In this document: one piece after another, positions 5,471-58,500 of the stretch
How positions within the stretch are numbered: the stretch's first letter is position 1
Layout of the letters: each line of letters begins with the position of its first letter
From: Christensenella sp. UBA3944
GTDB lineage: Bacteria > Bacillota > Clostridia > Christensenellales > DTU072
Direction: 5' to 3'
Assembly (NCBI GenBank): GCA_002385605.1
Contig: DGDU01000033.1
Coordinates: forward strand, 13,587 to 77,586
DNA: 64,000 nt
Program-made: the position numbers and the translations under genes
Notes under the pieces: generated by a model
What the model was told of the DNA's origin: nothing
What the model saw: the letters and a program-made list of their open reading frames with translations, nothing else
Databases searched by the model: none

Positions 5471-6340
5471 TTACTTAAACGATGTTATGCAGGTGGTGCC
5501 GCAGGGAAGGATTATCCTCGGGTCGCCCGTGGGAAGCCCGAGTTCGAAAGCCTCGGTTTCTCCCGTAAGCCCGTCCAACCCTAAGCTTGCGATATTTTTC
5601 ATTACGGTGGGCTGTAAGCCGGTTGTGTAGCTGTTTATGAGATAAAACAAAGGCTTGTCCGAAAGCACCTGCCTTGTGAGGCAAACAAGGTCGTAAATTT
5701 TGTCCTCCAGCTTCCATGTTTCGCCCTTTGGGCCCCTGCCGTAGCTGGGCGGGTCCATAATTATTGCGTCGTACCGCCTGCCCCTCTTTATCTCCCTTTC
5801 GACGAACTTTACGCAGTCGTCCACGATGTACCTTATAGGAGCGTCCGAAAGCCCGCTTAATCTTGCGTTTACCCCCGCTCTCTCGCACATTGCTTTTGCG
5901 GCGTCAACATGGCATACCGACGCCCCAGCGCTCGCGGCGGCGAGCGTTGCCCCGCCCGTATAAGCGAAAAGGTTAAGGACGCTTATCGGGCGCCCCGCGC
6001 CTTGTATCATAGATATTATTCTTGCCCAGTTGGAGGCCTGCTCGGGGAAAACCCCCGTGTGCTTAAAGCCCATAAGCTTAAGTGAAAACTTAAGGCTTCT
6101 CCAGTTTACAAAAAACTCGTCGGGTACGCGCCTCAGGATTTTCCACGCCCCGCCGCCCGAGGAGCTTCTCTCGTAAACGGCGTGCAGGCCTTCGTACTTT
6201 CGCATATCGAAGGGCGCCCGCCAGATAATCTGCGGGTCGGGGCGGAGAAGTATTATTCCTCCGAAATCCTCTAGCTTATATCCGTCGCCCGTGGCTATAA
6301 CCCTATAGTCACGCCACGACGCATTGGTGTCTGTATTCAT
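5471..6340 (-). CDS. class I SAM-dependent methyltransferase (RlmI/RlmK catalytic-domain-like)
   Basis: LNLFAYTGGATLAAA (SAM motif I) and IIMDPPSYG (DPPxY motif). Confidence 0.8.
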   Translation of the reverse strand: MNTDTNASWRDYRVIATGDGYKLEDFGGIILLRPDPQIIWRAPFDMRKYEGLHAVYERSSSGGGAWKILRRVPDEFFVNWRSLKFSLKLMGFKHTGVFPEQASNWARIISMIQGAGRPISVLNLFAYTGGATLAAASAGASVCHVDAAKAMCERAGVNARLSGLSDAPIRYIVDDCVKFVEREIKRGRRYDAIIMDPPSYGRGPKGETWKLEDKIYDLVCLTRQVLSDKPLFYLINSYTTGLQPTVMKNIASLGLDGLTGETEAFELGLPTGDPRIILPCGTTCITSFK

Positions 6341-6342
6341 AG

Positions 6343-9114
6343 TTATTCCGTGAGGTTAATGCGGCTGTCAAGTTCCGCCATCATGTGGCTGTAATCGGTC
6401 TGCTTGTCTATTATTATGAGGTGCGAGAGGTATCTCTTGGCGTCCATATACTCGCCCTGCATGGCAAGCTGCCTTATGAGGCGCAGCAGCCCGAAAACAA
6501 TCTCCTGCCTTATGCTCTTGCGTTCGTCGGCAAAGTCGTCGTAGGTGATGTCGGCGGCAAATTCGCCCTTGTAAAGCTCGAGAATCTGGTTCATGATTTC
6601 CATCATTTTATAGGTGTTGGTCTCGACCTTGTAGCGCAGCATAAGGGATTTGTAATGCGAGTAGTCGCTCTCGAGGTTGTCGATACGAAGGATGTAGCGG
6701 CTGTTAATGTAGTCCAGCTTATAATCGATATTGTAGGCCGCGAGCGTCTTTCTGATAATATTGTTTGTGGTTTTGAGGTTATTTATAGCCGATTCGTAAA
6801 GATAATCCTTCCAGAGGTAGTCTATTATAACCGAGCGGTCGATGCCCTGCTCGCCGGCAAGTATATAGTGCAGGAAGAGGTCGCGGGATTTGCGGGTCTT
6901 CCATTGCACGACCTCGCCGCCCACGGTGATGCGCACATCGCCGAACATATCGATGTTGATGCTTCCCACCGAGTGCTTTAGCTTTTCTTTCTTCTTGAGG
7001 GCGTCCTCGACTTCCTGAACAAAATCTTCCTCTATCTTGTTCTGCTTGGCGAAGGAGATTATCTTGCTGAATATGTCGTGATAATTATCCACAACAATCA
7101 TCTTCATCCCGTAGGAAGAAGACGACCTGAGTATGTTCTTAACCAGAGTGTGGGCGTCCTTCAAATCGCCTTTGACAAGCATATGAGATGTGGCGATGGC
7201 GACGCCTATCAGCCAGTTGGTGGAACGCGCCTGGCTGGTCTGCACGCATTGGGTGGCGTACTTGTATGCCTTTTCGCTGTCGCCCAGCTTGAGATAGCAA
7301 TAGCTTAGCGCCAGCTGAAGCATAGAAACATACTTGGGAAAGTAGGTTTCGCATTGCTTAAGGTAGATGTGCGCGACTTCCTTGGCGTAGTTGGGGTCGC
7401 CGAAGCGGGCGTAAGCTATGCAGCGCTGCCCTATCACATAAAAACGGGTGGCGTTGTTTTCTTTGCTTAGCTTTACCGCAAGATCGTACTTTGCCAGGGC
7501 CTCCCTTACCTTGCCGTAATAGAGGTCTATCATACCGAGCGTGCTGTAAAGAAGCCCGATGTCGGTTTCGATTTCGTTGGTTATGGCAAAATCAAGCGCT
7601 TCCTTGGCTATCATCTCGGCCTTTTCGACTTCGCCTTCGTAGTAGCGGAAGGCGATCTGCGAATGCGGCACGACATAAGTGGGAAGGTACTCTTTTAGCT
7701 TGTCGGCAATCATAATCGCCCTGCGGTAGTTGCCGATGTTAAAGTAGGCAATCGAGAGGTCCTCGAGGGCCTTTATATAGAAAAGTGTTTTTTCGCACTC
7801 GGGCGAAAGAATCTTGTTTTCGTACTCGGTAATGGGTATGTTGAGCTCCTTGCGGAAAGGCACCGTAAGGCAGTACAGCACATTGAGTATGGCGGGATTT
7901 GCGCGGCTTAACTTTGCCATTATGGGGTTTATTACGCCGGCAATCTCGTCGTTTAGCCCCTGCTTGTCGTAGCTGTTTGCCAGAAGGAAAGCCGCCGTCG
8001 TTTCGGCCAGGTTGTCGCCGAGGTCTGAAAATACCGTTATAAGGTCTTTGAAATATTTATTGGAAACCTCGTATTCGCCTTTGGCGGCGGCGACTATGCC
8101 CATATAAAGCTTGTAGTACGGGTAGCTTTCGTCCACCGGAGGGTATTCCATATTTTTGCGGGAGGCGGCAAAGTCCCAAAGCCTCAGAAGCCTTATTTCG
8201 TCCGAAAGTATGGCCTTTATGCATTTGTCGGCTTCGCTGAGCCTGTTCTGCTTGCAGTTGAAAATAAAAGCCGAATAATGCTCGCCGTTGCGGTAGAGGT
8301 AGTCGGCGTAAAGGGGTATAAGAGGCGCCGAGAACTTTTCGGCTATGATATGCTCGTATTTGTCCCTGTTTTCGGCAAGGTAGTTGCGAAGAAGGGTATT
8401 AATCCTGAAATACCTTACATCCCTGGTAGCCACATAGTACTCTTTGCGGGAGAGCATACGGAGAAGCTCTTCGCCCTCAGGATAAATTTCCCTGACAAAC
8501 ATCGAGTCGAAAACGATAAGCTCGCTTATATATGTCAAAAAGGCGATATGCTCGTCTTCCAGGCCCTCGAGGTAGGTTTTGCAGTCGGGAAGCGGGGTAT
8601 GGTGGGTGAGGATATTTTCGTCTATGAGTTTGGGGTAAATGGGCTCGAAACGGGTGTAGTCGAAATTAATAAAGGTTTCGCTGGAGATTACGATTTTTAG
8701 GTTGGAGGGGCAATGCTTTATCATGCGCTCGAGCAAAGAAAGGTCGAAGTCTTTGGGAAGCCTCTCCATTCTCTCGAATATCATAAGGCAGTTGCCCTTT
8801 ATCTTGGAAATGTAGTCTAATATGGACATCGCCACGACATTGCAGTCGTTAAAGGTCGAGTCGCAGAACAGCAGCTGATACATCTTTAGCTTGAACTGCT
8901 CGTCATTTTTGACAACCTTTCCTACAAGAGTGTGGCAGAACAAATCGAAATCGTCTACGACCGCGTTAAACCAAAAAACCGTGTGATAGCGGTTGGCGAG
9001 CTCGGTAAGAAAATCGGTTTTGCCCGTGCCCGCGGGAGCAAACAACATAACGGCAGAGGTGTTGTTGGCCATTATCTCGTTGATAAGCGTATTGGTGTTG
9101 GTGTCGTACTTCAT
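6343..9114 (-). CDS. large signal-transduction ATPase with TPR-like repeats and a C-terminal SARP module (winged helix plus BTAD)
   Basis: P-loop FAPAGTGKTDF near the N-terminus. TPR-like helices (YFNIGNYRRAIMIADKLKEY, YLKLGDSEKAYKYATQCVQ). C-terminus FGDVRITVGGEVVQWKTRKSRDLFLHYILAG...IIDYLWKD...NNLKTTNNIIRKTL, then ILELYKGEFAADITYDDFADERKSIRQEI...GEYMDAKRYLSHLIIID. Confidence 0.75.
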   Translation of the reverse strand: MKYDTNTNTLINEIMANNTSAVMLFAPAGTGKTDFLTELANRYHTVFWFNAVVDDFDLFCHTLVGKVVKNDEQFKLKMYQLLFCDSTFNDCNVVAMSILDYISKIKGNCLMIFERMERLPKDFDLSLLERMIKHCPSNLKIVISSETFINFDYTRFEPIYPKLIDENILTHHTPLPDCKTYLEGLEDEHIAFLTYISELIVFDSMFVREIYPEGEELLRMLSRKEYYVATRDVRYFRINTLLRNYLAENRDKYEHIIAEKFSAPLIPLYADYLYRNGEHYSAFIFNCKQNRLSEADKCIKAILSDEIRLLRLWDFAASRKNMEYPPVDESYPYYKLYMGIVAAAKGEYEVSNKYFKDLITVFSDLGDNLAETTAAFLLANSYDKQGLNDEIAGVINPIMAKLSRANPAILNVLYCLTVPFRKELNIPITEYENKILSPECEKTLFYIKALEDLSIAYFNIGNYRRAIMIADKLKEYLPTYVVPHSQIAFRYYEGEVEKAEMIAKEALDFAITNEIETDIGLLYSTLGMIDLYYGKVREALAKYDLAVKLSKENNATRFYVIGQRCIAYARFGDPNYAKEVAHIYLKQCETYFPKYVSMLQLALSYCYLKLGDSEKAYKYATQCVQTSQARSTNWLIGVAIATSHMLVKGDLKDAHTLVKNILRSSSSYGMKMIVVDNYHDIFSKIISFAKQNKIEEDFVQEVEDALKKKEKLKHSVGSINIDMFGDVRITVGGEVVQWKTRKSRDLFLHYILAGEQGIDRSVIIDYLWKDYLYESAINNLKTTNNIIRKTLAAYNIDYKLDYINSRYILRIDNLESDYSHYKSLMLRYKVETNTYKMMEIMNQILELYKGEFAADITYDDFADERKSIRQEIVFGLLRLIRQLAMQGEYMDAKRYLSHLIIIDKQTDYSHMMAELDSRINLTE

Positions 9115-9138
9115 GATACTCCTCTTTCTCCGCCAGCT

Positions 9139-9167
9139 GTAAAATGATTGTAAATTATTCGTAAAAT
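9139..9167. promoter_or_regulatory. three direct heptamer repeats GTAAAWT at 11-bp spacing; candidate SARP box
   Basis: GTAAAAT 9139-9145, GTAAATT 9150-9156, GTAAAAT 9161-9167, then CATAAT at 9177-9182. Confidence 0.45.
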
Positions 9168-9175
9168 AAAGTCAA
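9147..9175 (-). promoter_or_regulatory. candidate sigma-A promoter of the regulator gene
   Basis: Minus strand TTGACT (9175-9170), 17 nt, TACAAT (9152-9147). SD GGAG sits 4 nt before ATG 9114. Confidence 0.45.
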
Positions 9176-9266
9176 GCATAATAATGGAATATCGAAAAAA
9201 TTAGTAAATATTCTTGTTCTTTGACAAAGCCCGCCCCGCCCGCATACTATATACGGAGGTGAGGCA

Positions 9267-9536
9267 ATGAGAATAAACGACTACATAAAAAAACGCGCCG
9301 CGGGAAGCCAGCCCGCCCCCGAAAACGGCCAAAACACCCAGGAAATGCTCGATAAATACGGCAAAATGAACGAAGAGCAGCTGATGCAGGAGATGTTCAA
9401 AAACGCCGCCATAAGCCGTGCCAACGGCACATTAAACGATGAAATGCTGGATAATTTTTACAGCAACGCCAAGGCTTTTCTCACTCCCGAGCAGGCCGAG
9501 CGCATGCGCGAACTTATAAGAGAGCTTAAAAAGTAG
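9267..9536 (+). CDS. hypothetical small protein, 89 aa, helical, Glu/Met/Asn-rich
   Basis: GGAGG 7 nt upstream of the ATG. No family recognised. Confidence 0.65.
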   Translation: MRINDYIKKRAAGSQPAPENGQNTQEMLDKYGKMNEEQLMQEMFKNAAISRANGTLNDEMLDNFYSNAKAFLTPEQAERMRELIRELKK

Positions 9537-9541
9537 CGGAG

Positions 9542-9913
9542 GTGGATATGAACAACAATATTATGTCGATGCTTCCGCTTCTCATGATGGGCATGAACGG
9601 CGGAAAGGGCGGAAACAACAATATGGCGGATATGCTAAAGATGTTTTCCGCCATGAGCGGCGGAGGTTCACCCTTAGGCGGGGGTATGCCTTTCGGCGGG
9701 CAACAAGGCGGGTCGCCCGATATGTCCACGCTTATGGGGCTTATGAGTATGATGCAGGGCCAGAACAACAATCCCCAGCCGCCCCCGCAGCAGCAGGCGG
9801 CGCCCAATTACGGGATAAACAAGCAAATGCCCTCGGAAATGTTAAAGCAGATGCTCCCGCCCGAGGCGATCTCGATTCTTGAATATATGATGAGGAAAAA
9901 CAGTCCCGCTTAA
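9542..9913 (+). CDS. hypothetical low-complexity Met/Gly/Gln/Asn/Pro-rich protein, 123 aa
   Basis: GGAGG 5 nt upstream of the ATG and 5 nt after the stop of the preceding ORF. I count 22 Met in 123 residues. Confidence 0.65.
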   Translation: MDMNNNIMSMLPLLMMGMNGGKGGNNNMADMLKMFSAMSGGGSPLGGGMPFGGQQGGSPDMSTLMGLMSMMQGQNNNPQPPPQQQAAPNYGINKQMPSEMLKQMLPPEAISILEYMMRKNSPA

Positions 9914-9975
9914 TCCGCCCCGCACAACGGCTTGTTATTAAATCTGCGGACTGCTTTTAACAGCAAAACGCCGGC

Positions 9976-10317
9976 TTAGCCCATCCTCTCGGAGAGCTTG
10001 TTGCCGCCCAGGATGTGTATGTGCAGGTGGAATACCGATTGGCAGGAGTCGGCGCCTTTGTTGTTTATAATACGGAAGCCGTTGGAAAGCCCCAATTCGT
10101 CGGCGAGCGAGGAAAGCTTCTTCAGCGCTCTTGCCAGCACGGCGGCGTCCTCGTCCGTCATTTGGGTAATGTCGGCGTAGTGGCGCTTGGGGATAAGCAA
10201 ATAGTGCTTGTCGGCTTGGGGGTTAATGTCGGCGATGATGATAAATTCGTCGTCCTCGTAAAACTTCTTAGAGGGGATATCCCCTTTTATTATTTTGCAG
10301 AATACGCAGTCGGTCAT
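9976..10317 (-). CDS. HIT-family (histidine triad) protein
   Basis: HLHIHILGG triad motif, 113 aa. Confidence 0.92.
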   Translation of the reverse strand: MTDCVFCKIIKGDIPSKKFYEDDEFIIIADINPQADKHYLLIPKRHYADITQMTDEDAAVLARALKKLSSLADELGLSNGFRIINNKGADSCQSVFHLHIHILGGNKLSERMG

Positions 10318-45933: not shown

Positions 45934-48900
45934 TTAACCCGCCTTGTTGTCGATGGTCTTTAAGGCGTCGTCCAGCTTGGCGGATACCAGCTTGGATACG
46001 CCCTTCTCCTGCATCGTTATGCCGTAGAGAACATCGGCAAGCTCCATTATCGGCTTGCGGTGGGTTACGACGATAAACTGCGTAGAGCTGGAAAACTTCC
46101 TTAAGTACTGCGCGAACAGGCTGGCGTTGGCCTCGTCCAAAGCCGCCTCTATCTCGTCCAGAATGCTGAATGGCATTGGCTTAAGCTTTATTATTGCGAA
46201 CAATATTGCTATCGCCGTTAGCGCCCTCTCGCCGCCCGACATAAGGCTAATGCGGGTGAGTTTCTTGCCGGGTGGCTCCGCCATAATCTCTATGCCGGCG
46301 TCCAGAACCGAAAGGTTTTCGCCCTTCTCGAGTTCCAGCCTCGCCGTGCCGCCGCCGAACAGCTCCTTAAACACTTCCTGGAAGTTCTGGTTAACCTGAT
46401 TGAAGCTCTTTGTAAACTTCTCCACCATCTCGGTGGTAAGCTCTTCTATCATTTTAACCAAATCGGCCTCGGCCTTAACAAGGTCGTCGTATTGCTTCTT
46501 AAGTTCGGCGTATCTCGTGGTTTCGGATGCGAATTTCTCCTCGGCTAGCTCGTTTACGGGGCCCATCCTCTCTATCTTTCTTCTTAACGCCGACGCTTCC
46601 TGAGGCGATTTTACGGGGTCGAACTCGCAATCCTTCGCGTACTCCTCGGCGTATTTCTTTGCCGAGTCGAAATCGAGGCCGTAGTCCTCGCTTATCCTTG
46701 TCGAAAGGTTTGCGATGTCTATGTCTATCCTTTCGAGGGCTGCCTCTTCCCTTATGCGCCTTTCGTTTATGTCGGATAGCTGCCTGTTAAGCTCCGTTTT
46801 AAGCCCGTCCAGCTCGGTAATCCTGTCCTTAAGGCGCTTCTTGTGTTCGTCAAGCTCCTCTACCTCTTTACGGAGGGAGGCAATCTGCGCGCTGTTGTCC
46901 TCGGTGAGCGCGGATTTCTCGATTCTCGCTTCGAGATCGGCAAGCTCTTTGTCGTTGGTCGCCTTGCGCGCCCTCAGATCGAGTAAAGCCCTGTTTATGA
47001 GGTCAACTTCCGCCTTAATCGAGGCAAGTTCCTTGTTGATATTGTCTATCTCGTTCTGAAGCCCGCTTACCTCGACATAAGCGTCGGTCACCCTCTTGCT
47101 GAGGGCGTCGAGGTTTTGCTTTGCCGTAAACAGCTTGTCCTTTGCCTCGTTTACAAAGTCCGAAGCCCCCATCTTCTCGGCGGCCATATCGTCCTTATTC
47201 TTTTCGGACTGTTTGATTAAAACGGCAAGTTCGTCGAGGCGGGCGGTATTCGTGGCGATGGAGGTTTCCAGCTTTTCTATCGCGGCTTTGCAGGCGGATA
47301 CTTCGCTGTCGGCGGCCGATACCCTGCTCTCGAGGCTTCCTATATCGATATCCAGCTTATGGATTCTCGCGCCTATTATGCCCGCGGCTTTTTCTAGCTC
47401 GGCGCTCTCGGCGGCGTAGTCCTGAATGCTGTCCCTTAGCATTTCGATTTTCTTTTTAGTGGAGGCAAGCTTTTTCTTAAGCTCTTCAAGCTCGCTCTCC
47501 CTGGACAAAATCCTGTTTGACCTGTTGGCGTTGCTTCCGCCGCTAACCGAGCCGCTCTGGCTTACTATATCGCCGTTGAAATCTACGATTCGGAAGCCGA
47601 ATTTATACTTTTTGGCTATCCTAAATGCCGTTTCGCGGTCTTCGACGACAACAGTCTTGCCCAGAAGGCTGGAGATTACATTGTCGAATCTGGGCTCGTT
47701 TCTTATGATGTCGGAGGCTATGCCGATAACGCCTTCCTCGTCCAGAACCCTGTCGTATTCCCTCGCGAGGGGGTTGGCCCTAACCGTTGTAAGCGGCAGG
47801 AATGTGGCCCTGCCGTAGCCCTTTTGACGCAATAAATCGATGAGGTCGCCGGCGTCGCTCTCGTTGGGGGTAATGATATTCTGTATCGCCGCGCCCAAAG
47901 CGGACTCTATGGCTATCTGCAGATCCTCGGGAACGGTAATTACATCGCCCACCGTGCCCAGTATCTTGCGCTTTATCTCGGGGTTATTGTTTGCCTCCGC
48001 CATAAGTCGGCGGACGGATTCCTGGTAGCCCGTGTAGTCGTTTATGAACTCCTCGACCATCCTTATTTTTGCGTCTAGGGCGGCGTAATACTGCTCTGCC
48101 GCTCCCAAATCCTTTTGCGCGGCTTTCAGGTCGGCGAGGCAGTCGGCGAGGTTTTTGTCGGCAAGCGCCTTCTCACGCTGTTTCTCGTCCTTTTCGTTCA
48201 AAAGGACATTGAGGCTTGCGGAAAGCTCGTCCCTCGTCTTGGCAAGCGTTGTGTATGCCGCTTTTTTATCCTTAAGCTCTTCTTTTGCCTCGCGGATGGA
48301 ATCGATAAGCAAATCCCTTTCGATTTCGAGCTTTGCCTTATTTTTGTCTATCTCGGAGAGCTTATCCATGCTCTCCATCATAAGGCGGTTGGTCTTTTCT
48401 ATCTCCTTCTCCTGTTGGGCGACGGACTCGGCCAGCTCGGACTGGTTTCTGGCCAGAAGCTCGTAGGTCTGGCGTTTTTCTTTAAGAAGAAATGTTTTTT
48501 CGTTATACGCCACAACCTTTTCTTCCCGCTCGCGGTGCCTTTCGGCAAGGCGCGACTCCAGCTGTACGGTTTCGGTCGCTATGTTTTGCGCTTCCCTGCG
48601 GAGGTTAGCAAGCCTTTCGTTAAGAAGCCTGTACTCGCCCGCCGCCTTTTCGTTGCTGACAAGAAGTTCTGTAATCTGGTCGCGAAGCCTTGCCCCGTAA
48701 ATGTCGCTGTTCATCGAGTCGTTCATAGCGGCGTTATAGTCGGCGTTTACGCTTCTTAACTCTTCCTCTTTGGCGGCAAGCTCGGCGGCGATTTTCTCGA
48801 GATGCTTTCTTGCCTTATCCCTTTGCGCCGAGGCGGTTTCGGTCTGGTGCAGGAAATACAAAACCTCAAGCTGCTTAAGCTTATTCTTAAGTTCCCTTAC

Positions 48901-49542
48901 CTTTGCGGCGTCCTTGGCTTCCTGCTCGAGGGGGCCTAAATTGGATGAAATCTCGTGCAAAATGTCGTTAAGGCGGGAGAGGTTGTCGCGGGTTTTTTCC
49001 AGCTTCTTTTCGGTTTCGATTTTGCGCGCCTTGTGGCGGCTTATGCCCGCCGCTTCCTCGAATATCTGGCGGCGCGCCTCGGGCTTGGCCGAAAGGATTT
49101 CCTCAATTTTGCCCTGCCCTATTATGCTGTAGCCCTCGCGCCCGATACCGCTGTCGCGGAAGAGGTCAATGATATCCCTCCAGCGGCAGAGGTTTCGGTT
49201 TATAAAATACTCGCTTTCGCCGCTTCTATACATCTTGCGGGTTACGACAACCTCATCATAATCGACGGGGTAGCGCCTGTCCTCGTTGTCCAAGAAGAGG
49301 GATACCTCGCAGTACGACATCGATTTACGGTTTGCCGTGCCGCCGAAGATAATTTCGGGCATCTTTTTGCAGCGCAAAACCGAGGGGCTTTGCTCGCCCA
49401 ATACCCACCTGACGGCGTCGGCCACATTGGACTTTCCGCAGCCGTTGGGGCCTACTATACCTGTGATGTTGGACTTGAATTCTATCTCGGTTCTGTCCGC
49501 AAAGGATTTAAAGCCATAAAGTTCAATCTTTTTCAGGTTCAT
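45934..49542 (-). CDS. smc: chromosome segregation protein SMC
   Basis: GPNGCGKSN Walker A, long coiled coils, hinge, LSGGE-type signature MSGGERALTAIA, Walker B ILDEIEAALD. Confidence 0.97.
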   Translation of the reverse strand: MNLKKIELYGFKSFADRTEIEFKSNITGIVGPNGCGKSNVADAVRWVLGEQSPSVLRCKKMPEIIFGGTANRKSMSYCEVSLFLDNEDRRYPVDYDEVVVTRKMYRSGESEYFINRNLCRWRDIIDLFRDSGIGREGYSIIGQGKIEEILSAKPEARRQIFEEAAGISRHKARKIETEKKLEKTRDNLSRLNDILHEISSNLGPLEQEAKDAAKVRELKNKLKQLEVLYFLHQTETASAQRDKARKHLEKIAAELAAKEEELRSVNADYNAAMNDSMNSDIYGARLRDQITELLVSNEKAAGEYRLLNERLANLRREAQNIATETVQLESRLAERHREREEKVVAYNEKTFLLKEKRQTYELLARNQSELAESVAQQEKEIEKTNRLMMESMDKLSEIDKNKAKLEIERDLLIDSIREAKEELKDKKAAYTTLAKTRDELSASLNVLLNEKDEKQREKALADKNLADCLADLKAAQKDLGAAEQYYAALDAKIRMVEEFINDYTGYQESVRRLMAEANNNPEIKRKILGTVGDVITVPEDLQIAIESALGAAIQNIITPNESDAGDLIDLLRQKGYGRATFLPLTTVRANPLAREYDRVLDEEGVIGIASDIIRNEPRFDNVISSLLGKTVVVEDRETAFRIAKKYKFGFRIVDFNGDIVSQSGSVSGGSNANRSNRILSRESELEELKKKLASTKKKIEMLRDSIQDYAAESAELEKAAGIIGARIHKLDIDIGSLESRVSAADSEVSACKAAIEKLETSIATNTARLDELAVLIKQSEKNKDDMAAEKMGASDFVNEAKDKLFTAKQNLDALSKRVTDAYVEVSGLQNEIDNINKELASIKAEVDLINRALLDLRARKATNDKELADLEARIEKSALTEDNSAQIASLRKEVEELDEHKKRLKDRITELDGLKTELNRQLSDINERRIREEAALERIDIDIANLSTRISEDYGLDFDSAKKYAEEYAKDCEFDPVKSPQEASALRRKIERMGPVNELAEEKFASETTRYAELKKQYDDLVKAEADLVKMIEELTTEMVEKFTKSFNQVNQNFQEVFKELFGGGTARLELEKGENLSVLDAGIEIMAEPPGKKLTRISLMSGGERALTAIAILFAIIKLKPMPFSILDEIEAALDEANASLFAQYLRKFSSSTQFIVVTHRKPIMELADVLYGITMQEKGVSKLVSAKLDDALKTIDNKAG

Positions 49543-49577: not shown

Positions 49578-52500
49578 TTATTCAGCTATTCCGCTGTCCG
49601 CGAAGGCGTCTTTGCCAATATTTGAAGCGCCCCGGGGAAGGTTTACATAATTTAAGCTTGCGCAGCCCGCAAAGGCGCGCTCTCCTATAACAATGTTAAC
49701 GGGGGCTTCGGACAAATCCAGCCCGAGGAAGGAGCGGCAGTCGAGGAAGGCCCCTTCTTCTATTCTTGCGAGTTCGCTGAAGTCGCCGTAAAGCATCGAA
49801 AGCGACGAGGCGTCGGCAAAAGCGTACTTGCCTATCGCCGTAATCCTTCTGGAAAGCGTTACGGTGGCAATGCCCATGCAGCCCGCGAAAGAGTACTCTT
49901 TAATCTCTGTCGCCTTGGTGAGCGTAACATAACGGAGGGTGAAGGGTATGTTATACAGCGTTTCGGTAAGCGTTCCGCCTGCCATTATATGCTGTTTTAC
50001 CACATTGGCGGCGTATTCGCCCGCCGTGCCGAATATGTAGCCGAACTGCGACTGCGCGCCTGTCGCGCTAAGCGACCTTCCCGCGAAAGGTATCGAGAGC
50101 GACACAAGCGAGTTGGTGCCCTCAAGCGATCCGCCCTCTATGATATTCACCGAATACGGTATCGTAAGGGATGTTATCGAACGGCAGTTGTAGAAGGCTT
50201 TAGCTGGTATCTCTGTTATGCCCTCGTTTATAGTTATCGAGGTTACCGCCGTAAGGTTATAGAAAGCGCCGTACCCTATCGCCGAGGCGGAGGTTATTGC
50301 TATCGACCTTAAGGCCTCGGGTATGTAGAAGGTTCTTGAGCCAGACGTGCTGAAGTATTGCGTCGTCGCGCCTATAGTGCCCTCGGTTGCCTCGCCGAAT
50401 ATGTATCCGAACAAGGCGGCAGCGCCGCTTGCCGAACGGTTGGAACCGACAAACGGCAAGGTGACGCTCTCTAAAGCCGAGCAGCCCGCGAAGGCGCCCG
50501 AGGCAATCGATGTCACGCTGTCGGGAATCACAATAGAGGTAAGCCCTTTGCAGTTGGCGAATGCCGAGGCGCCGATGCTCACTATGCCGCTGTTAAGGTA
50601 AAGCTCGGTTATCTCGTCGCAGTTATAGAAGGCGCCGCTTGCTATATTGGTTGCGTTGGTAACCGTCACGCTGTAAAGGTTATTGGGAAGCCTGGTGTAT
50701 ACGGTTGTGCCTTCGCCGTAAACCTGCGCAGTCGTGTTCATGCCCTGCGACACAAAGTTGAAGAAGTAGCCGAGCAAGGCGTTCTGGCCTGCGGCCGAGG
50801 GTGAAGCTCCGATAAACGGCACCGTCAGCCTTTCGAGCCCCGTTACGCCCTCGAATATGCCTATGCCTATGCTTTCGACGCCTGCGGGAATGGCGATCTG
50901 GGTAAGCGCGGTATTCTTAAACGCCGCCGCCCCTATTACCTGCAGCTGCGAGCCCGCCGCGAATATTATTTCGTTAAGCTGCGCGCAGCCCTCGAAGGCG
51001 TTGGCGCCTATCGAAGTCACGCTCGCGGGTATGGTTATGCTCCTTAAAGCCGTCAGGCCCGAGAACGCCCCGCTCTCGATGGCGACTAGCCCCGCGGGAA
51101 GCGTAATCGTAGTGATTCTGGTGTTATAAGAGAAGGAATTTGTCCTTATCCTCGCGGCGTCGGTGATGTTTACAACGGTCAGATTGCTTGGCGCGCCTCC
51201 GAACACATAATTTATGGTCGCGGCCTCGCCCGTAGCCGAGCGGGAAGCGCCCACAAACGGCACCGTAAGCGTCTGTATTCCGCTGTCCTTAAAGGCGCTC
51301 TTGCCCACGCTCGTGACTTCCTTATTTATTGTAAGCGTTGTCAGGTTAGAAAGCCCCGAAAGCGCGCCGTAGCCAATGCCCGAAGCGTTGGTAACAGTAA
51401 TATTTCTGATGTTTTGGGGTATCCTGGCATAGGCTATCTGCCCGGCGCCGTCGCCGTAGTGTTGCCCTACCGCGCCGCTCGCGCCCGCCGCTACCTGCTC
51501 GAACCAGTAGCCCAGCAGAGCTTCCTGCCCGTCGGCAACGCTTCTCGCGCCGATGTAAGGAACGGTAAGGTTTTCGAGGTTGAGGCAGCCCGAGAACGCT
51601 CCCCGGTGTATCGATGTCACATTGTTAAGGGTGAGGTTCACAAGCCCCGTCATGCCAAGCAAAGCGTTTTCGGCGATGGTAACGGCCGAGGTAATCACGA
51701 GGGTTTGCACGCTCGAGATTCCGCTTTCGGACTCTGTGCCGAACACATGCCTCATCGTCGCCCTGGCGTCCACGGAGTTTGTGCGCTCTCCTACAAACGG
51801 CACCGTCAGGGTTTCTAGCGACACGCAGCCCTCGAAGGCAAGCGCGCCTATCGTTGCAACGCCGCTGTTGATGGATATGCTTGTTATGAAGTGGCAGCCC
51901 GAGAACGCCCCGTAATTGATGGCGGTAGCCGAGGTCACGGTGACATTCTTAAGCGTGGTCGGGATTTCAAAAGATATCGGCGAGGTCTGCTGGGCGTATT
52001 TTTGGGAAATTCCGCCGCTCTCCGCCCGCCCGAAGAAGTACCCGAGTACGGCGTTTGCGCCCGTTGCGTCCCTGGCCGAGCCAATAAACGGCACCGAGAA
52101 CCTCTGGCTTAACGGGCAGCCGTTAAAGACCGCGCTACCTATGAATGTAACGCTGTCGGGTATGACGATATCCGCGAGAGATGCGCAGCCCTTGAATGCG
52201 GCTTCGTTGATGGTCGAAAGCTTGGATCCCGAAGCGAACACTACCGACCTTAAAGCCGAATTCTCGAAGGCGTGCCCTTCTATGGCAAGCACGCTTGCGG
52301 GTATGGTTATATTCTCCAATGCGGTATTATACGCGGCGTAAGCGCCTATCTGCGTAATACCCTCGTTGAGGTAAAGGGCGGTAATCCGCGTGTCCCTTAT
52401 GGCGTCGCTCGCCAGGAAGGCAGCCGCGGTAACGGTTAAGGTCTTAAGGGCTATAGGCACATTCGCGTTGTCCGCAGCGTGCCCGAAAAGATATCCCAGC

Positions 52501-55500
52501 TTGTGCTCGTCGGTTGTGGGCACATTCTTGTCCTTGTCCTTGCCTACAAAGGGCAGGGTTAGCGAAACAAGGTTTACGCAGCCCTCAAAAGCAGCCTCGC
52601 CCATTGTAAGGACGGTTTGCGGTATTACGGCTTCCTCCAAAGAGGCGCAATCCTTAAAGGCCTCGTAGCCTATCTCGCGCACGCCGTCGGGAAGGGTAAT
52701 CTGCCTTAAGACATCGCAGCCCGAGAAGGCGCCCTCGCCCACGGATATGAGGCGGGAGCCGCTCTCGAAGTTCACCGAAATAAGGTTATGGCAGTTAGCG
52801 AAGGCGTAAGCGCCTATCGTCCCGACATCGGCCGATATTGTAATCGTTTCGAACGCCGCGCCGTAGAAGGCGTAATCGCCTATGCTTAGTATCCTGGCGT
52901 TGCCGCCGATATCTATAAGCTGCAGAGAGGGACACTCTATAAACGCCCTGTCGCCTATGCTCACCTTGCCGAGCGCCCTGAAGGTTCTCAGGTTAGCCAT
53001 ACCCGAGAAAGCGCCGTCGGAAACCACCGAATCTCCCGTGACCGTCACGGATACGAGGCTTGCTGGAATCTCGCTGTAGAAGTAATTGCCCGCTTCGAAA
53101 TACTGCCTTACGGCGCCCGATGCCGATTGGTCTGTAAAGCCGAACAGGTACCCCAACAGCCCCTCCCTGCCGGAGGCCGATGCGCTCTCGCCCACGAAGG
53201 GCAGCACTACGCTTTCAAGCGCCTTGCAGTTGGCGAACACGCCCTCGGGTATAGAAGCGATATCTCCGCTTATTTCTATCGATTTAAGGTTAAAGCCCGC
53301 GGGGAAGGCCGATGTCGTCAGCTTTGTGACAGATGTCAACTTAATATTATTAAGGTTTGTTAGCGGCTCTCCGGTAAGGTACATAAGAGAGCTCTCGGCG
53401 CCCTCGGCGTCCGCGCCGGCGCCTGCAAACGGCAGCTCAAGCGACACAAGCCCTGTGCAGCCCACTATAAGGTTTTTGCCCAGCGCGCCGCCGTCCCTTA
53501 CCGTAAGGTTCTGCAGCGAGGCTATATTGGAGAACGCGCCGTACCCGCCCGCGCGGTTCACGATAACCGTCTTTAAGGTGGCGGGTATAAAGGCGTAAAC
53601 GCTTTCGGTTTCGCTTATAAACTGCTCGGTTACGCCGGCATCCGTCGCCTCGCCGAAGCCGAATATGCTGCCCAAAACGGCGTTTGCCCCGACAGCGTCG
53701 GCAGAGGTGCCCGCGAAGGGCAAATCTAGGCTTTCGATTATAAGGTTGCCGCGCAGCGAGCCTTCTTCTATGGACACAATGCCCGCTCCCAGCGTAAGCG
53801 ACCTGAGGGCGGTTATGCCCCTGAAAGTCTTATTGGTTATGGCGATTTCGAGGGTGTCGTTGGCAATCGTGATATTCTCTATCGCCGCCGAGCCGCCGAA
53901 CACCTCGTCAAGGGCGGGGTCGGAATCCGAGGGGCTCTTGCCCACAAACGGGACAGTTATATTCTTAAGCGAGGCGTTATTTCCGAACGCGAGATCGCCC
54001 ATCGATTCCAGCGACCTGGGAAGCGCTATGGTTGCAATCGCTGTGTTATAGAATGCCTTATCGCCTATCGACGAAAGCGTTTGATTGAGGCTTACCTGAA
54101 CAAGGCTTACGCAGTCCATAAACGCCGCTTCGCCGATGGTTCGTACGGACGCAGGCAGGACGGCGCCAGTCAGGCTGTTGGCGCCCGCGAAGGCTTCTTT
54201 GGCGATATAGCCAAGTGCGGTATCTGCGAGGTTTACGCTCGCGAGGTTGTAAGCGCCTTTGAAAGCGCCCTCTCCCATCTCAATAAGCGAGGCGGGCAGG
54301 CGGGCAAAGGCTATGCCCGAATTTTCGAAGGCGTAATCGCCTATGTATGTAAGCTCTTCGCAACCCTCAAGGTTTAGGGCTATAAGCCTGTCTGTTTCGG
54401 CGAAGGCCTTTTCCTCTATACGTGTAAGCGTCGAGGGAATATCGAATATCCTTAAGTTTGCGCAATTATAGAATGCCTCGTATTCGATGACAAGCAGGCT
54501 GGGTCCTCCCCTGAAGCTTACCGTATCCAGGTTAGCGCAATCCTTAAATGCCGCGAAGCCTATGCTCAGAAGCCCCGAAGGCAGGGATACCGTTTGCAGA
54601 TAGGTATTGGAAGCGAAGGCGTACGCGTCTATTCTCACAACGCCGTCGGGCACGGTGTAGCTCGCCGCGTTAAGCGACTTGGGATAGGAAATAAGCACCG
54701 AGCCGTCCTTCGAGAACAGCACGCCCGACACCACCTTGTAGCCCGAGCGGTAGCCCGAGAGGTTGAGGCCCGAAACAGGCGTCTCGTAGAAGGGGTTTAC
54801 GCCCATATAAGTTACGCCCGAAGGAATGGCAAATGTTGCGAGGTTGGAATGAGCGAAGGCGTAGCTTCCTACACGGGCAAGGGCGCTGTTTGTCCCGAAG
54901 CTAATCGAAGAGAGCAAGGTATGGGCAAAGGCGTAATCGCCTATCTCCAACGCGGACGCCGGCAGAGCGACCGTCGATACCTTGGTATGGGCAAAGGCGT
55001 AATCGCCCAAAGTTTCTAGGGCGCTGCCCGCGGCAAAGGTTATGCCCGCGAGGTTTTCGCAACCCTCGAAGGCGTAATCGCCTATATACCTAAGAGAAGC
55101 CGGGAAGGTTATAGCCGTTATGGCGGTGTTGCCGCGGAATGCGCTATCCCCTATGTTTACAAGCTGTGCTGCCACGGCGAAGGTAACCGAGGCAAGGCTC
55201 AGGTTGTTCGCGAAAGCGTAATCGCCGATGGCGAGCACGCCCGCGGGCACGCTCACCGATGTTATCGCCGTGCCGAAAAAGGCTTTGGCGTTGATGTAAG
55301 CCAGCCTGCTTCCTATAACCTCGAAGGTTATGGTTTGCAGGGCGCTTCCCTCAAACGCCGATTCGTCTATTGTCACGACGGATGCGGGAATATTAACCGC
55401 CGCGATTTGCGCCATGTAGAAGGCCTTTTTGTTTATGGATGCCAGATTCTCGTTGAGGGTGACATTCAGCGCAGGTATGCCGCTAAGAGCCCCCTCCCCG

Positions 55501-58500
55501 ATGTGCAGGGCGTTTGTTATAATGATGTTTTTTAAGGAAGAAGGAATATAATATGTGAATTCCTCATCCGCCCCGTATTGGGTGATTTCGGCGAAGCCCG
55601 CCGCGGTCTCTGCGCCGAAGATATACCCTAGCATGGCGTCCGCCCCGCCCGTAGCCTCACGGTTTGCCCCGATATAGGGCAGGCTTATCGTTTCAAGCGA
55701 CAGGCAGCCCCTGAACAGGCCCTGCCCTATATGGGTAAGGGCGTTGGGCAGGTAAACCGTGCGCAGGTTGACGCTGTTTTCGAAGGCGTAATCGCCTATA
55801 TACGCAAGGTTGCTGTTGGGTACGCTAAGCACCACAGATACCAGGTTGGGCATATTCGAGAAGGCGCCCTCGCCTATCGAAATTACGCTGTTCGGGATAT
55901 TCAAATCCTGTATTACGGTAGCCCTGAAAGCGTAATCGCCTATCGTGCGAACCCTGTTAAGGTTAATTAAGGATAGGTTGTTCGCGCCGTCAAAAGCGTA
56001 ATCGCCTATGGCAGTAATCGAGTTGGGAAGCACAATCCTTTCGATTCCCGTATTGCCGGCAAAAGCCCTTTCGCCAATCTCCTCTGCGCCGTCGTTAATG
56101 GCGACTTCCTCAATCGAGGTATTCATGAACGCGCCGTAGGGTATGCGGTCGGCGCTGGTTATCGCCACGCTCGCGAGCGTGCCAGGTATGAAGTAATAAG
56201 CAAAGCCGCTGTCGGAGTAATACTGCTGAACGGCGCCCGCGGAGGGCTCGTCCGAATACCCGAAGATGTATCCGAACACGGCGTCGGGAGTGCCCTCGAC
56301 ATCCCTCGCCGAGCCCACAAAGGGTATAGTAAGCGCCTCGAGGGCGTTAAGCCCGTACAAAGCGTTAGCCTCTATCGTTATAATATTGGCGTTAAGCTTT
56401 ACCTCAACAAGGCTTGCCACATTGTAAAGCGCGCCGTAGCCTATCACGGAAGCGTTGGTTACTTCCAGGTATGCAAGCCCCGAAGGAATTATGTAATGGC
56501 CTTGCTGCCCTTCGGCGTATTGCTGCGTAACTCCGCTTTCATCTTCCGCGGGAGCGAACAGGTAACCGAGGATAGCCTCGGCGCCCTCGGCGTTACGGCT
56601 TTTGCCGATAAAGGGTATAGTGAGGGCTTGAAGGTTTTGGCAGCCCTCTAACGCCTTAGCGCTCATTTCGGTTACGGTGTCGGAGATTACGATTTCCTCA
56701 AGCGAAGCTATATTGGAGAAAGCCCCGTAAGGTATGCGGGTGGCTTTTGTCACATTTACATACTTTAGCCCCGCGGGTATATGGTAATAAGCGAAGCCGC
56801 CTTCGGAATAATCCTGCCTTATCGCGCCCGCCGTTTCGCCGTCGGAGTAATTAAACAAATACCCGAGCACGGCGTCGTCGGTGCCGTTGGCGTAACGGGC
56901 GGAGCCTATGAAGGGTATCGTGAGGGCTTCCAATGCCCCGCACCCCTCAAACATAAGGGCGGACATCCTGGCAAGCTCGGAAGAAATCTTTGCCTCGGTT
57001 AGCGAAACGCAGCCCGCGAAGGCCTTATGCCCTATCGCCTTTACGCCGTCGGACATCGTCACTTTAATAAGGCTTTCGCAGCCCTCGAAGGCCGAAGCGC
57101 CTATCCTCACCAAAGAGGAAGGCAGATACGCCTCGAGGATTGCCTCGCAGCCCATAAACGCCTTAGAGCCTATGGTTGTAAGCCTGTTAAAGGCGCGCAG
57201 GTCAAGACCCTCAATCCTGTTAAACTCGGCAAGGTTTACGCAGCCCTCAAAGGCCGAGTCGCCTATCGAGGTTATCGTTGCGGGAAAGCTCATTGCCCTC
57301 AGGTTCACACAGCCATAGAAAGCCTTTTCGGCTATCGCCGCAATATGGGTTATATCCAAGTTGATAATATCCCTGAGCGCCGCGCTGCCCATAAAGGCGC
57401 CCGCCTCGATGGCTGCGAACTGCTCGGCGGTGAAGGTTACTCTCTCGAGCGCCGAATACGCGAACGCCATCGAAGCTATCGAAGTCACATTCGCGGGTAT
57501 GGAGAAAGCGGTTATCACACTTCCGCCGTCGTTCCTGTTTGCGGGGTATTGGATAAGTTTGGTGCCTTCATAGTTATAAAGGACGCCGTCTACGGACCTG
57601 AAATACATTCCGCCCATAACATCGATGCTCTCGAGGGCGGGGCAGCCTATAAAAGCGCCCGACGCGATTTGCTTTACGCTCGAGGGTATGGTTATTCTCT
57701 TTATGTAAGAATTGCCCGAGAAAGCATACTTGCCTATGGCGGTAACGGGTATTTCGCTGCCGTAATACTGTATGGTGTCAGGGACATTTACTTCATCGAC
57801 AGAAGAGTCGCCGAAATATTTGGTAAGTATAGCCTCGTTATTTTTAATATAAAACCTGAAGTCGCCTACCGCCACGATTTCCATTTCCGCGCCTTCCTTC
57901 CAGTAGATGGCGGGATCGTCCCATCTGTCCTTCCAATCGGCGGGCTTTGCCGCTCCCGTGGCGTAAACCACAATTAAGCCGCTTCCCGCGAAGGCGTTCC
58001 TGTCCACGGAAGTAATGCTTTGGGGCAGGGTTATGGTCTTTATTCCCGTCTTATTTACGAAGGCGCTGCCTATGGACACGACTTCGTCATTGCCGAAGAT
58101 GCTGCCGGGAACGGTGATTTCTTCGCTGCTTCCGGTGTAGGAAGTGATATATACCGAACTGACGCGGTCGTTGTCGTTATACTCGACAAGCACATAAGCG
58201 TATTTTATATTTTCTTCCGTATTCTCATACTCGTCGGTATACGCCTCATAATTTACCGTAAGGAGGGGGCAATTATGGAAGGCGAGGGCGCCGATGTAAG
58301 TAAGCGACGCGGGCAGCTCTATGCTGCTAAGGGCTTTGCAGCCGTTGAAAGCCTCATTGGCAATGCTGATAAGCGTGCGGGGCAGGCTTACATTCATCAA
58401 GGAAGCGCAGCCCATAAACGCCTTTTCGCCGACATATACGGTGTTCTCGAGAGTTATCTGCCTTATTTCGCCGCAACCCGAGAACGCCCCATATGGGATC

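Follow-up and report, generated by a model that had tools for sequence, protein, structure and literature searches.

The 64,000-nucleotide stretch of Christensenella sp. UBA3944 analysed here (contig DGDU01000033.1, positions 13,587 to 77,586; hereafter the window) contains, on its minus strand, the gene of a 923-residue regulator (6343..9114) preceded by three short direct repeats that form a candidate operator. The regulator combines a STAND/AAA NTPase (residues about 1-250), a TPR region (about 260-710) and a C-terminal SARP domain (about 715-920), the last consisting of an OmpR-type winged helix and a BTAD module. The gene of an RlmI/RlmK-like S-adenosylmethionine-dependent ribosomal RNA (rRNA) methyltransferase (5471..6340, minus strand) starts 2 nt after the regulator stop codon, so that the two genes probably form one operon served by the same promoter.

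Read on the plus strand, the repeats are the heptamers GTAAAAT (repeat #1, 9161..9167), GTAAATT (repeat #2, 9150..9156) and GTAAAAT (repeat #3, 9139..9145), and in the sequence of 8700-9700 their starts at 9161, 9150 and 9139 keep an exact 11-bp register. On the minus strand, a consensus scan places the array within the regulator promoter, whose -35 hexamer TTGACT (9170..9175) and -10 hexamer TACAAT (9147..9152) each match the consensus at five of six positions and are separated by the optimal 17-bp spacer. With TACAAT set as -12..-7 and the transcription start (+1) predicted near 9140, the TTTAC core of repeat #1 occupies -25..-21 in the spacer, that of repeat #2 occupies -14..-10, where it overlaps the -10 hexamer and continues into TACAAT, and that of repeat #3 covers the predicted start at -3..+2. 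In the sense of the regulator the promoter reads TTGACT-N4-TTTAC-N6-TTTAC-AAT-N3-TTTAC, and its TTGAC, 10 bp upstream of repeat #1, looks like a degenerate fourth repeat. The predicted leader of ~26 nt includes the Shine-Dalgarno sequence GGAGAAAGAGGAG; both the TTGACT-17-TACAAT arrangement and its distance from the ATG are those of a housekeeping sigma-70/sigma-A promoter. An earlier reading of the window, made from the letters alone and referred to here as the original prediction, had described three GTAAAWT heptamers in 11-bp phase followed by a plus-strand CATAAT (9177..9182), as well as a minus-strand TTGACT-17-TACAAT promoter with the repeats in its spacer, over its -10 and at its start, and all of these features are borne out by the sequence and by the consensus scan. 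The array shows the 11-bp (or 22-bp) direct-repeat spacing of a SARP box. On the minus strand, 8 bp separate the end of repeat #1 (-21) from TACAAT, and two more repeats lie over the -10 and +1; on the plus strand, a 9-nt gap separates the last heptamer from CATAAT, in the window only.

The array is deeply conserved. Relatives of the regulator were collected with one genome per species, which gave 63 loci, all in Christensenellales/Clostridia metagenome-assembled genomes (MAGs), whose regulator proteins range from 83% down to about 25% identity. Among the 57 loci that include upstream sequence, an unselected set, 52 have TTTAC-N6-TTTAC upstream of the regulator orthologue and on its sense strand, at regulator identities that fall to about 25-30%; the repeats persist where the regulator does, as the original prediction had implied they should. 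By comparison, the same pattern has only three off-target matches in 719 kb searched on both strands (1.44 Mb in all), and the fuller pattern TTGAC-N5/6-TTTAC-N6-TTTAC, with at most one mismatch, occurs in 50 loci with a single off-target match in the same sequence. Repeats #1 and #2 are universal among the motif-bearing loci. Repeat #3 is clade-specific; it lies exactly 11 bp beyond repeat #2 in the window and in 27 of the 52. TTGAC (TTGAT in two loci) precedes repeat #1 by 10-11 nt in 51 loci, and in most of ~50 loci the promoter stands 37-60 nt from the ATG. When 51 distinct promoters, chosen because they carry the pattern, are aligned from a common anchor, TTTAC stands at repeat #1 in every one (51/51) and the flanking columns have 0-0.4 bit. 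Besides the pentamers, T-17 (49/51), the -35 and A-8/T-7 are nearly invariant in these promoters, the -10 being kept as TAC(A/C/T)AT. The conservation of the C at -10 and of the T at -13/-14 in repeat #2 exceeds what the -10 hexamer needs, and the invariant columns of the spacer fall at positions that the sigma factor does not read. As a control, the promoter of sm1, a small gene discussed below, has a spacer that shows no conservation in the same taxa. In the 17 loci in which sm1 diverges from the regulator, the block GTAAATATATT-GTAAATTATTC-GTAAATnnAA-GTCAAG is strikingly conserved, while the remaining intergenic sequence is not. An Rfam scan of 8900-10000 returned no RNA family, which indicates that this conserved block is not a known RNA element.

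Within the window itself the statistics are suggestive rather than decisive. GTAAAWT is not enriched (21 copies against 22.8 expected), nor are GTAAAWT pairs with at most two mismatches significantly so (5 against 2.3). When at most one column is allowed to vary, the array is the sole site in the 64 kb with three copies of any 7-mer at period 11, and no such triple was found by the same criterion at periods 10, 12 or 13 anywhere in the window. The original prediction had asked how often such a triple would arise by chance: under a Markov null of local composition, a period-11 triple appears in 7% of simulated windows (mean 0.12). TTTAC-N6-TTTAC occurs in the window only in the array, as two overlapping matches where 0.16 are expected, and two or more matches were seen in 0/100 shuffles. 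It is the conservation across species that shows the array not to be a product of chance.

As a SARP-domain protein the regulator is very divergent, and its modules follow one another as NTPase-TPR-SARP, in the opposite order to AfsR. Library matches are weak AAA_16/MalT hits at the N terminus and TPR in the middle, and NCBIfam aligns residues 708-877 weakly to the N-terminal SARP region of AfsR (E=1.8e-4). In direct Pfam scans the members of the regulator family fall mostly below threshold (BTAD in 3/26, Trans_reg_C in 1/26), and neither a single-sequence nor a profile search of the C-terminal domain against Protein Data Bank sequences returned anything relevant. The SARP domain was identified only by fold comparison and by a transitive profile search. 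An AlphaFold model of residues 691-923 (the last 232 residues; pLDDT 90.7) was matched by Foldseek to the SARP domain of AfsR (8hvr_I, E=1.1e-6; 8k60), to EmbR (2ff4) and then to OmpR-family DNA-binding domains, a result that confirms the SARP-type nature the original prediction had assigned to the neighbouring regulator. The full-length model (pLDDT 88.5) best matches the STAND-TPR protein 6mfv, with MalT (8bob) among the top matches. A profile of the C-terminal domain run against 1.84 billion representatives collects ~34 clusters of the ~920-residue regulator family and next reaches receiver-SARP (~370 residues) and STAND-TPR-SARP (~1000 residues) proteins, in which Pfam Trans_reg_C and BTAD score above threshold. 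The regulator thus has the OmpR-type winged helix and BTAD that define the SARP family; it departs from the 'large SARP' layout, in which an N-terminal SARP domain is followed by NOD and TPR modules. Nor does it fit the description of an actinobacterial activator of secondary metabolism, as its relatives come from Christensenellales/Clostridia MAGs and its neighbourhood is one of housekeeping genes.

A recognition-helix stretch, SAINNLKTTNN, is invariant, and the putative recognition helix SAINNLKTTNNIIRKTL is essentially invariant across the regulator family, which matches the invariance of the DNA motif. Both TTTACs are lost in L040 and L045 (loci are designated by L numbers), which keep TTGACT-17-TAACAT and in which the helix reads NNNMR instead of NNIIR; these two loci form one clade, the sole one in which both TTTACs have disappeared from a promoter that is otherwise retained. 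In L009, the helix reads NNVIR and the promoter shows no recognisable motif.

Taken together, these observations lead us to favour, with a probability of roughly 45%, an interpretation in which the array is an autoregulatory operator embedded in the core promoter of the regulator-methyltransferase operon and is read, with a repressive outcome, by the regulator's own SARP domain. The analysis shows the repeats with their phase, promoter position, conservation and specificity, as well as the SARP fold; we infer that binding takes place, that the regulator is the binder and that the effect is repression. Autoregulation is favoured because the pentamers occupy positions outside those that sigma reads sequence-specifically, a SARP domain is encoded next door and its recognition helix is invariant; repression by occlusion is favoured because the promoter is near consensus and needs no help, and because sites lie over the -10 and the start. 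SARP/OmpR-type winged helices are known to sit side by side on direct repeats, with one protomer per 11-bp unit (PMC10936776, PMC11301090). In the mechanism we propose, the C-terminal SARP domains would bind the TTTAC pentamers head to tail, one per turn; the pentamers share a single 11-bp register and hence all face the same side of the helix. At -25..-21, -14..-10 and -3..+2 they overlap the region in which sigma and RNA polymerase have to contact and melt DNA, so that their occupation would shut the promoter off. The resulting negative feedback would steady the levels of the regulator and the methyltransferase, and the state of the STAND ATPase/TPR sensor may modulate repression. The broader proposal, in which a SARP-type domain, a kind described to date solely in actinobacterial activators, would auto-repress in a Firmicute order through A/T-rich TTTAC repeats in the spacer, -10 and start site of its own consensus promoter and would thereby couple the signal sensed by the STAND ATPase/TPR module to an rRNA methyltransferase throughout Christensenellales, is held more tentatively and is, as a whole, doubtful.

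Several points weigh against this interpretation. To our knowledge, the SARPs characterised so far are all activators, and we know of no SARP repressor. The distance of 8 bp between the end of repeat #1 and the -10 is likewise canonical for activation, and regulation could accordingly be positive or of mixed sign. Protein and site are connected through guilt by association, and another winged-helix protein could read the same repeats. Covariation of helix and motif rests on essentially one or two events: L041 and L042 have the usual helix and no upstream motif, and three lineages that bear the motif show small helix changes (NS in L033, IL in L046, LI in L062/L063). Finally, searches of the 64-kb window and of the sequence within 6 kb of each orthologue, made with pairs of GTAAAWT, triples of GTAAA, pairs of TTTAC and the full promoter pattern, gave no second copy of the operator. 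The off-target matches were at chance level only, so that no regulon is definable and the motif assignment lacks an independent regulon instance.

Upstream of the array, and divergent from the regulator, lie two small plus-strand genes, sm1 (9267-9536), which has no family assignment, and sm2 (9548-9913), which encodes a low-complexity protein of 121 residues rich in Gly, Met, Gln and Pro. Neither has a Pfam or NCBIfam match, and the homologues of sm1 are all unnamed hypothetical proteins; sm2 follows sm1 in many loci. Of the two functions that the original prediction gave to a SARP box at this place, autoregulation agrees with its conservation on the regulator promoter, while activation of the small genes is not supported, since the CATAAT on which it depended is specific to the window. 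In the corresponding columns (-37..-42) the orthologues have GTGAAT or CGAATT, which lack the essential A2, and CATAAT is probably outside the element. Moreover, sm1 is the divergent upstream neighbour of the regulator in only 17 of the 63 loci. In others the place upstream is taken by tRNA-Gly (co-directional or divergent), by an asd-like gene (divergent), by a folA-like gene (co-directional) or by the gene of a membrane protein, and the array persists; it persists too where sm1-sm2 run co-directionally with the regulator (L023), lie at a distance of 5 kb (L044) or are separated from it (L051). The array goes with the regulator, whichever gene is found upstream.

The small genes have a conserved element of their own. 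On the plus strand the consensus scan pairs TTGACA at 9221 with CATACT or TACTAT, and the original prediction had judged a promoter in this 9221/9245 region the less convincing one. It is here that the comparison places the conserved element: in 19 of 20 sm1 loci, among them L023, L044 and L051 and those in which sm1 is unlinked from the regulator, AC is followed after exactly 17 nt by G(C/A)ATAnnnT, which lies 14-20 nt before the start codon of sm1 (A in 17/19, C in 19/19). In the window, this proximal promoter (9224..9250, plus strand) comprises AC at 9224-9225, 17 nt, and CATACTAT at 9243-9250, preceded by a conserved G at 9242 (GCATACTAT, 9242-9250). The predicted sm1 leader is ~7-13 nt long and starts in or beside the Shine-Dalgarno sequence. 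The form of the element matches that of sigma-K/sigma-E mother-cell sporulation promoters. The two genes thus appear to have their own promoter of the mother-cell-sporulation-sigma type, independent of the array, and appear not to be its conserved targets; the composition of sm2, together with this type of promoter, suggests a spore-coat-like or structural protein.

Some promoters of the family depart from the common arrangement. Between the conserved promoter and the regulator start codon there are 585 nt in L012 (5413-5998), 448 nt in L014 (5550-5998) and 231 nt in L033 (5767-5998). No convincing open reading frame (ORF) was found between promoter and start codon in L012 and L014, and the long stretch in the three loci could be a long leader or an insertion. 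An extra pair, TTCAC-N6-TTCAC, abuts the -35 (about -51..-36) in L018-L026, L030-L032, L038, L044, L049 and L056, and four or five copies of (A/C)TTTCAC, at spacings of 16-24 nt, lie further upstream in L026 and L034. Both the pair and the longer arrays are absent from the window; they may be extra binding sites, possibly activating ones. Independently of these variants, other assignments of the repeats themselves were considered and rejected: as plus-strand -10 elements, TAAAAT is not kept as TANNNT; as overlapping alternative -35 elements, they have no conserved -10 17 bp downstream; and a direct repeat of TTTAC corresponds to no Spo0A, Rex, CodY, Fur or LexA box.

Among the alternative explanations, an unlikely though concrete one is that the array is read by a different protein, for example an OmpR-family response regulator of the WalR or PhoP type, and that the SARP regulator does not bind its own promoter. 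The WalR consensus is TGTWAH-N5-TGTWAH, and B. subtilis PhoP boxes are TT(A/T/C)ACA with an 11-bp period. The plus strand of the window, with TGTAAA-ATGAT-TGTAAA, matches the former perfectly, its minus-strand TTTACA resembles the latter, and since OmpR-family proteins all use direct repeats of 10-11 bp, geometry alone does not identify the reader. Across orthologues, however, conservation is limited to GTAAA/TTTAC, so that a WalR or PhoP box describes the window and not the family: in the 51 promoters the base at -20 that would complete the hexamer at repeat #1 is T in 35, G in 12, C in 4 and A in none, and the T of TGT is variable at repeats #1 and #3. The motif is also unlike the box of a global regulon, being found nowhere else in the window and only at chance level in related sequence, and the invariant recognition helix of the adjacent regulator is the simpler explanation. 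A less probable alternative keeps the SARP regulator as the reader and reverses or mixes the sign: it would bind TTGAC (-35..-31) and repeat #1 in the manner of an afs box and activate by sigma adaptation, the -10 and +1 sites acting only at high regulator concentration and, in the subclade that has it, a TTCAC-N6-TTCAC centred near -43 serving as the activating site. This agrees with the activating role of all characterised SARPs, with the repeat-like character of TTGAC, 10 bp from repeat #1, and with the TTCAC pairs that abut the -35 in the subclade, as with the longer TTCAC arrays of L026 and L034. The gap between repeat #1 and the -10 is exactly the 8 bp that the SARP rule prescribes (PMC10936776, PMC11301090), and the pentamers lie on the non-template strand, in the same sense as the TCA contacted by AfsR (PMC11301090). 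Yet the promoter is already good, whereas SARP-dependent promoters have a poor -35 and long spacers (PMC10936776, PMC11301090); the universal repeat #2 sits on the -10, so that a winged helix bound there would collide with sigma region 2; and the window has no TTCAC pair.

It is improbable that the pentamers reflect intrinsic properties of the promoter and have no dedicated reader. A/T-rich sequence repeated in phase with the helix, as here, can bend DNA, so A/T-tract curvature or the spacer and discriminator preferences of RNA polymerase might be invoked, the more so as T-17 and A-16 partly fit the TRTG of the Gram-positive -16 region. Neither curvature nor these preferences account for the invariant C of each TTTAC (-21 and -10) or for the strict identity of the pentamers; the sm1 promoter of the same taxa has no such conserved spacer; and L040 and L045, with a working-looking -35 and -10 and no pentamers, imply that a promoter as such does not need the pentamers. 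The least supported reading, to which we give very little credence, is the activation of sm1-sm2 proposed by the original prediction, in which the repeats replace the -35 and CATAAT (9177..9182) serves as the -10. The last heptamer does end 9 nt before this good -10-like sequence in the window, sm1 does diverge from the regulator in 17 of the 63 loci, and PimR binds three heptamers in a divergent intergenic region between regulator and target (PMC3367932). Against it stand, besides the orthologues of CATAAT that lack A2, the persistence of the array when its neighbours are unrelated or lacking and when sm1 lies far off or points the same way as the regulator, the conserved AC-N17-CATAnnnT that sm1 owns even when unlinked, an array-to-sm1 distance that varies from about 80 to 190 nt, and a repeat orientation opposite to that expected from AfsR (PMC11301090).

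Several known systems resemble the favoured autoregulatory operator and its regulator in part. AfsR of Streptomyces coelicolor (8hvr, 8k60) likewise combines a SARP domain (winged helix and BTAD) with a STAND NTPase and TPR, in the order SARP-NOD-TPR as opposed to NTPase-TPR-SARP here, and its sequence similarity to the regulator is very weak. Its afs box in the afsS promoter also consists of direct repeats in 11-bp register inside the core promoter region (PMC10936776, PMC11301090), and in both cases one repeat ends at 8 bp from the -10; the pentamers here read on the non-template strand, as does the TCA of AfsR. The repeats are G/C-rich there and A/T-rich TTTAC here. Canonical SARP-activated promoters have a poor -35 and a 20-bp spacer, with a box at -40..-19 whose 3' site lies 8 bp from the -10 (PMC10936776, PMC11301090). 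Unlike the afsS promoter, which has such a poor -35 and 20-bp spacer, the promoter described here has a consensus-like -35 and a 17-bp spacer, and the additional repeats over its -10 and +1 point to repression. The genomic context differs as well, AfsR belonging to an antibiotic-cluster setting and the present regulator to housekeeping genes of a Christensenellales Firmicute. PimR of Streptomyces natalensis, also a large multidomain SARP, offers three heptameric repeats with 4-bp spacers in the divergent region beside its own gene, which its SARP domain footprints (PMC3367932). Those repeats are CGGCAAG, lie upstream of both promoters and overlap neither -35 (PMC3367932), and PimR activates the divergent pimM, whereas the array described here is embedded in the core promoter of the regulator itself, and the gene that diverges from it is not conserved as a partner.

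MalT/LAL-type proteins (8bob; 6mfv) share with the regulator an N-terminal STAND NTPase, a TPR-like sensor and a C-terminal DNA-binding domain, which in their case is a LuxR-type helix-turn-helix and not a SARP winged helix with BTAD. MalT reads arrays of short direct repeats; its boxes differ from the present array in lying upstream of the -35 and in being activating. The nearest relatives of the C-terminal domain outside the family are Firmicute receiver-SARP response regulators and other STAND-TPR-SARP proteins (COG3947-type; P0067, P0068, P0095 and others; E 1e-13 to 1e-22). These have, like the regulator, a C-terminal Trans_reg_C and BTAD after a sensor module, and differ from it in having CheY-like receivers as sensor modules or in being distant paralogues; JGI names several members of the regulator family in the COG3947-type manner. 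A literature search for these relatives returned no characterised binding site, and one for SARP or BTAD regulators in Firmicutes returned nothing relevant.

The region around the regulator in the window is a housekeeping one, in which the gene order includes obg-nth-iscS-rluD-like-rlmI-like and hit-mtaB-prmA-dnaJ-dnaK-grpE-hrcA-hemW-lepA. The methyltransferase follows the regulator in nearly all of the 63 loci, an order-wide tight pairing of a STAND-SARP regulator with a putative rRNA-modification enzyme. Far from this region, two very large ORFs adjoin each other on the minus strand (49578-60944, 3788 residues, and 45934-49542, 1202 residues).

Repeat operators of the SARP/OmpR type are already known; what is new here is a proposed direct-repeat operator that is A/T-rich, lies in a consensus core promoter and belongs to a STAND-SARP regulator of reversed domain order in a Firmicute order. 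For the neighbouring small genes, the logic of annotation is corrected, as they appear to have a promoter of their own. SARPs have been studied almost only in actinomycetes, as switches of antibiotic clusters; with the present regulator, a relative that is deeply conserved is described from Christensenellales, which are prominent in the gut and largely uncultured. TTTAC-N6-TTTAC provides a testable candidate binding motif for a family that has no known target. If the proposed autoregulation is true, the rule of one protomer per turn that governs SARP/OmpR proteins would extend to an A/T-rich site in the core promoter, which would suggest that SARP/OmpR domains are able to repress as well as to activate.

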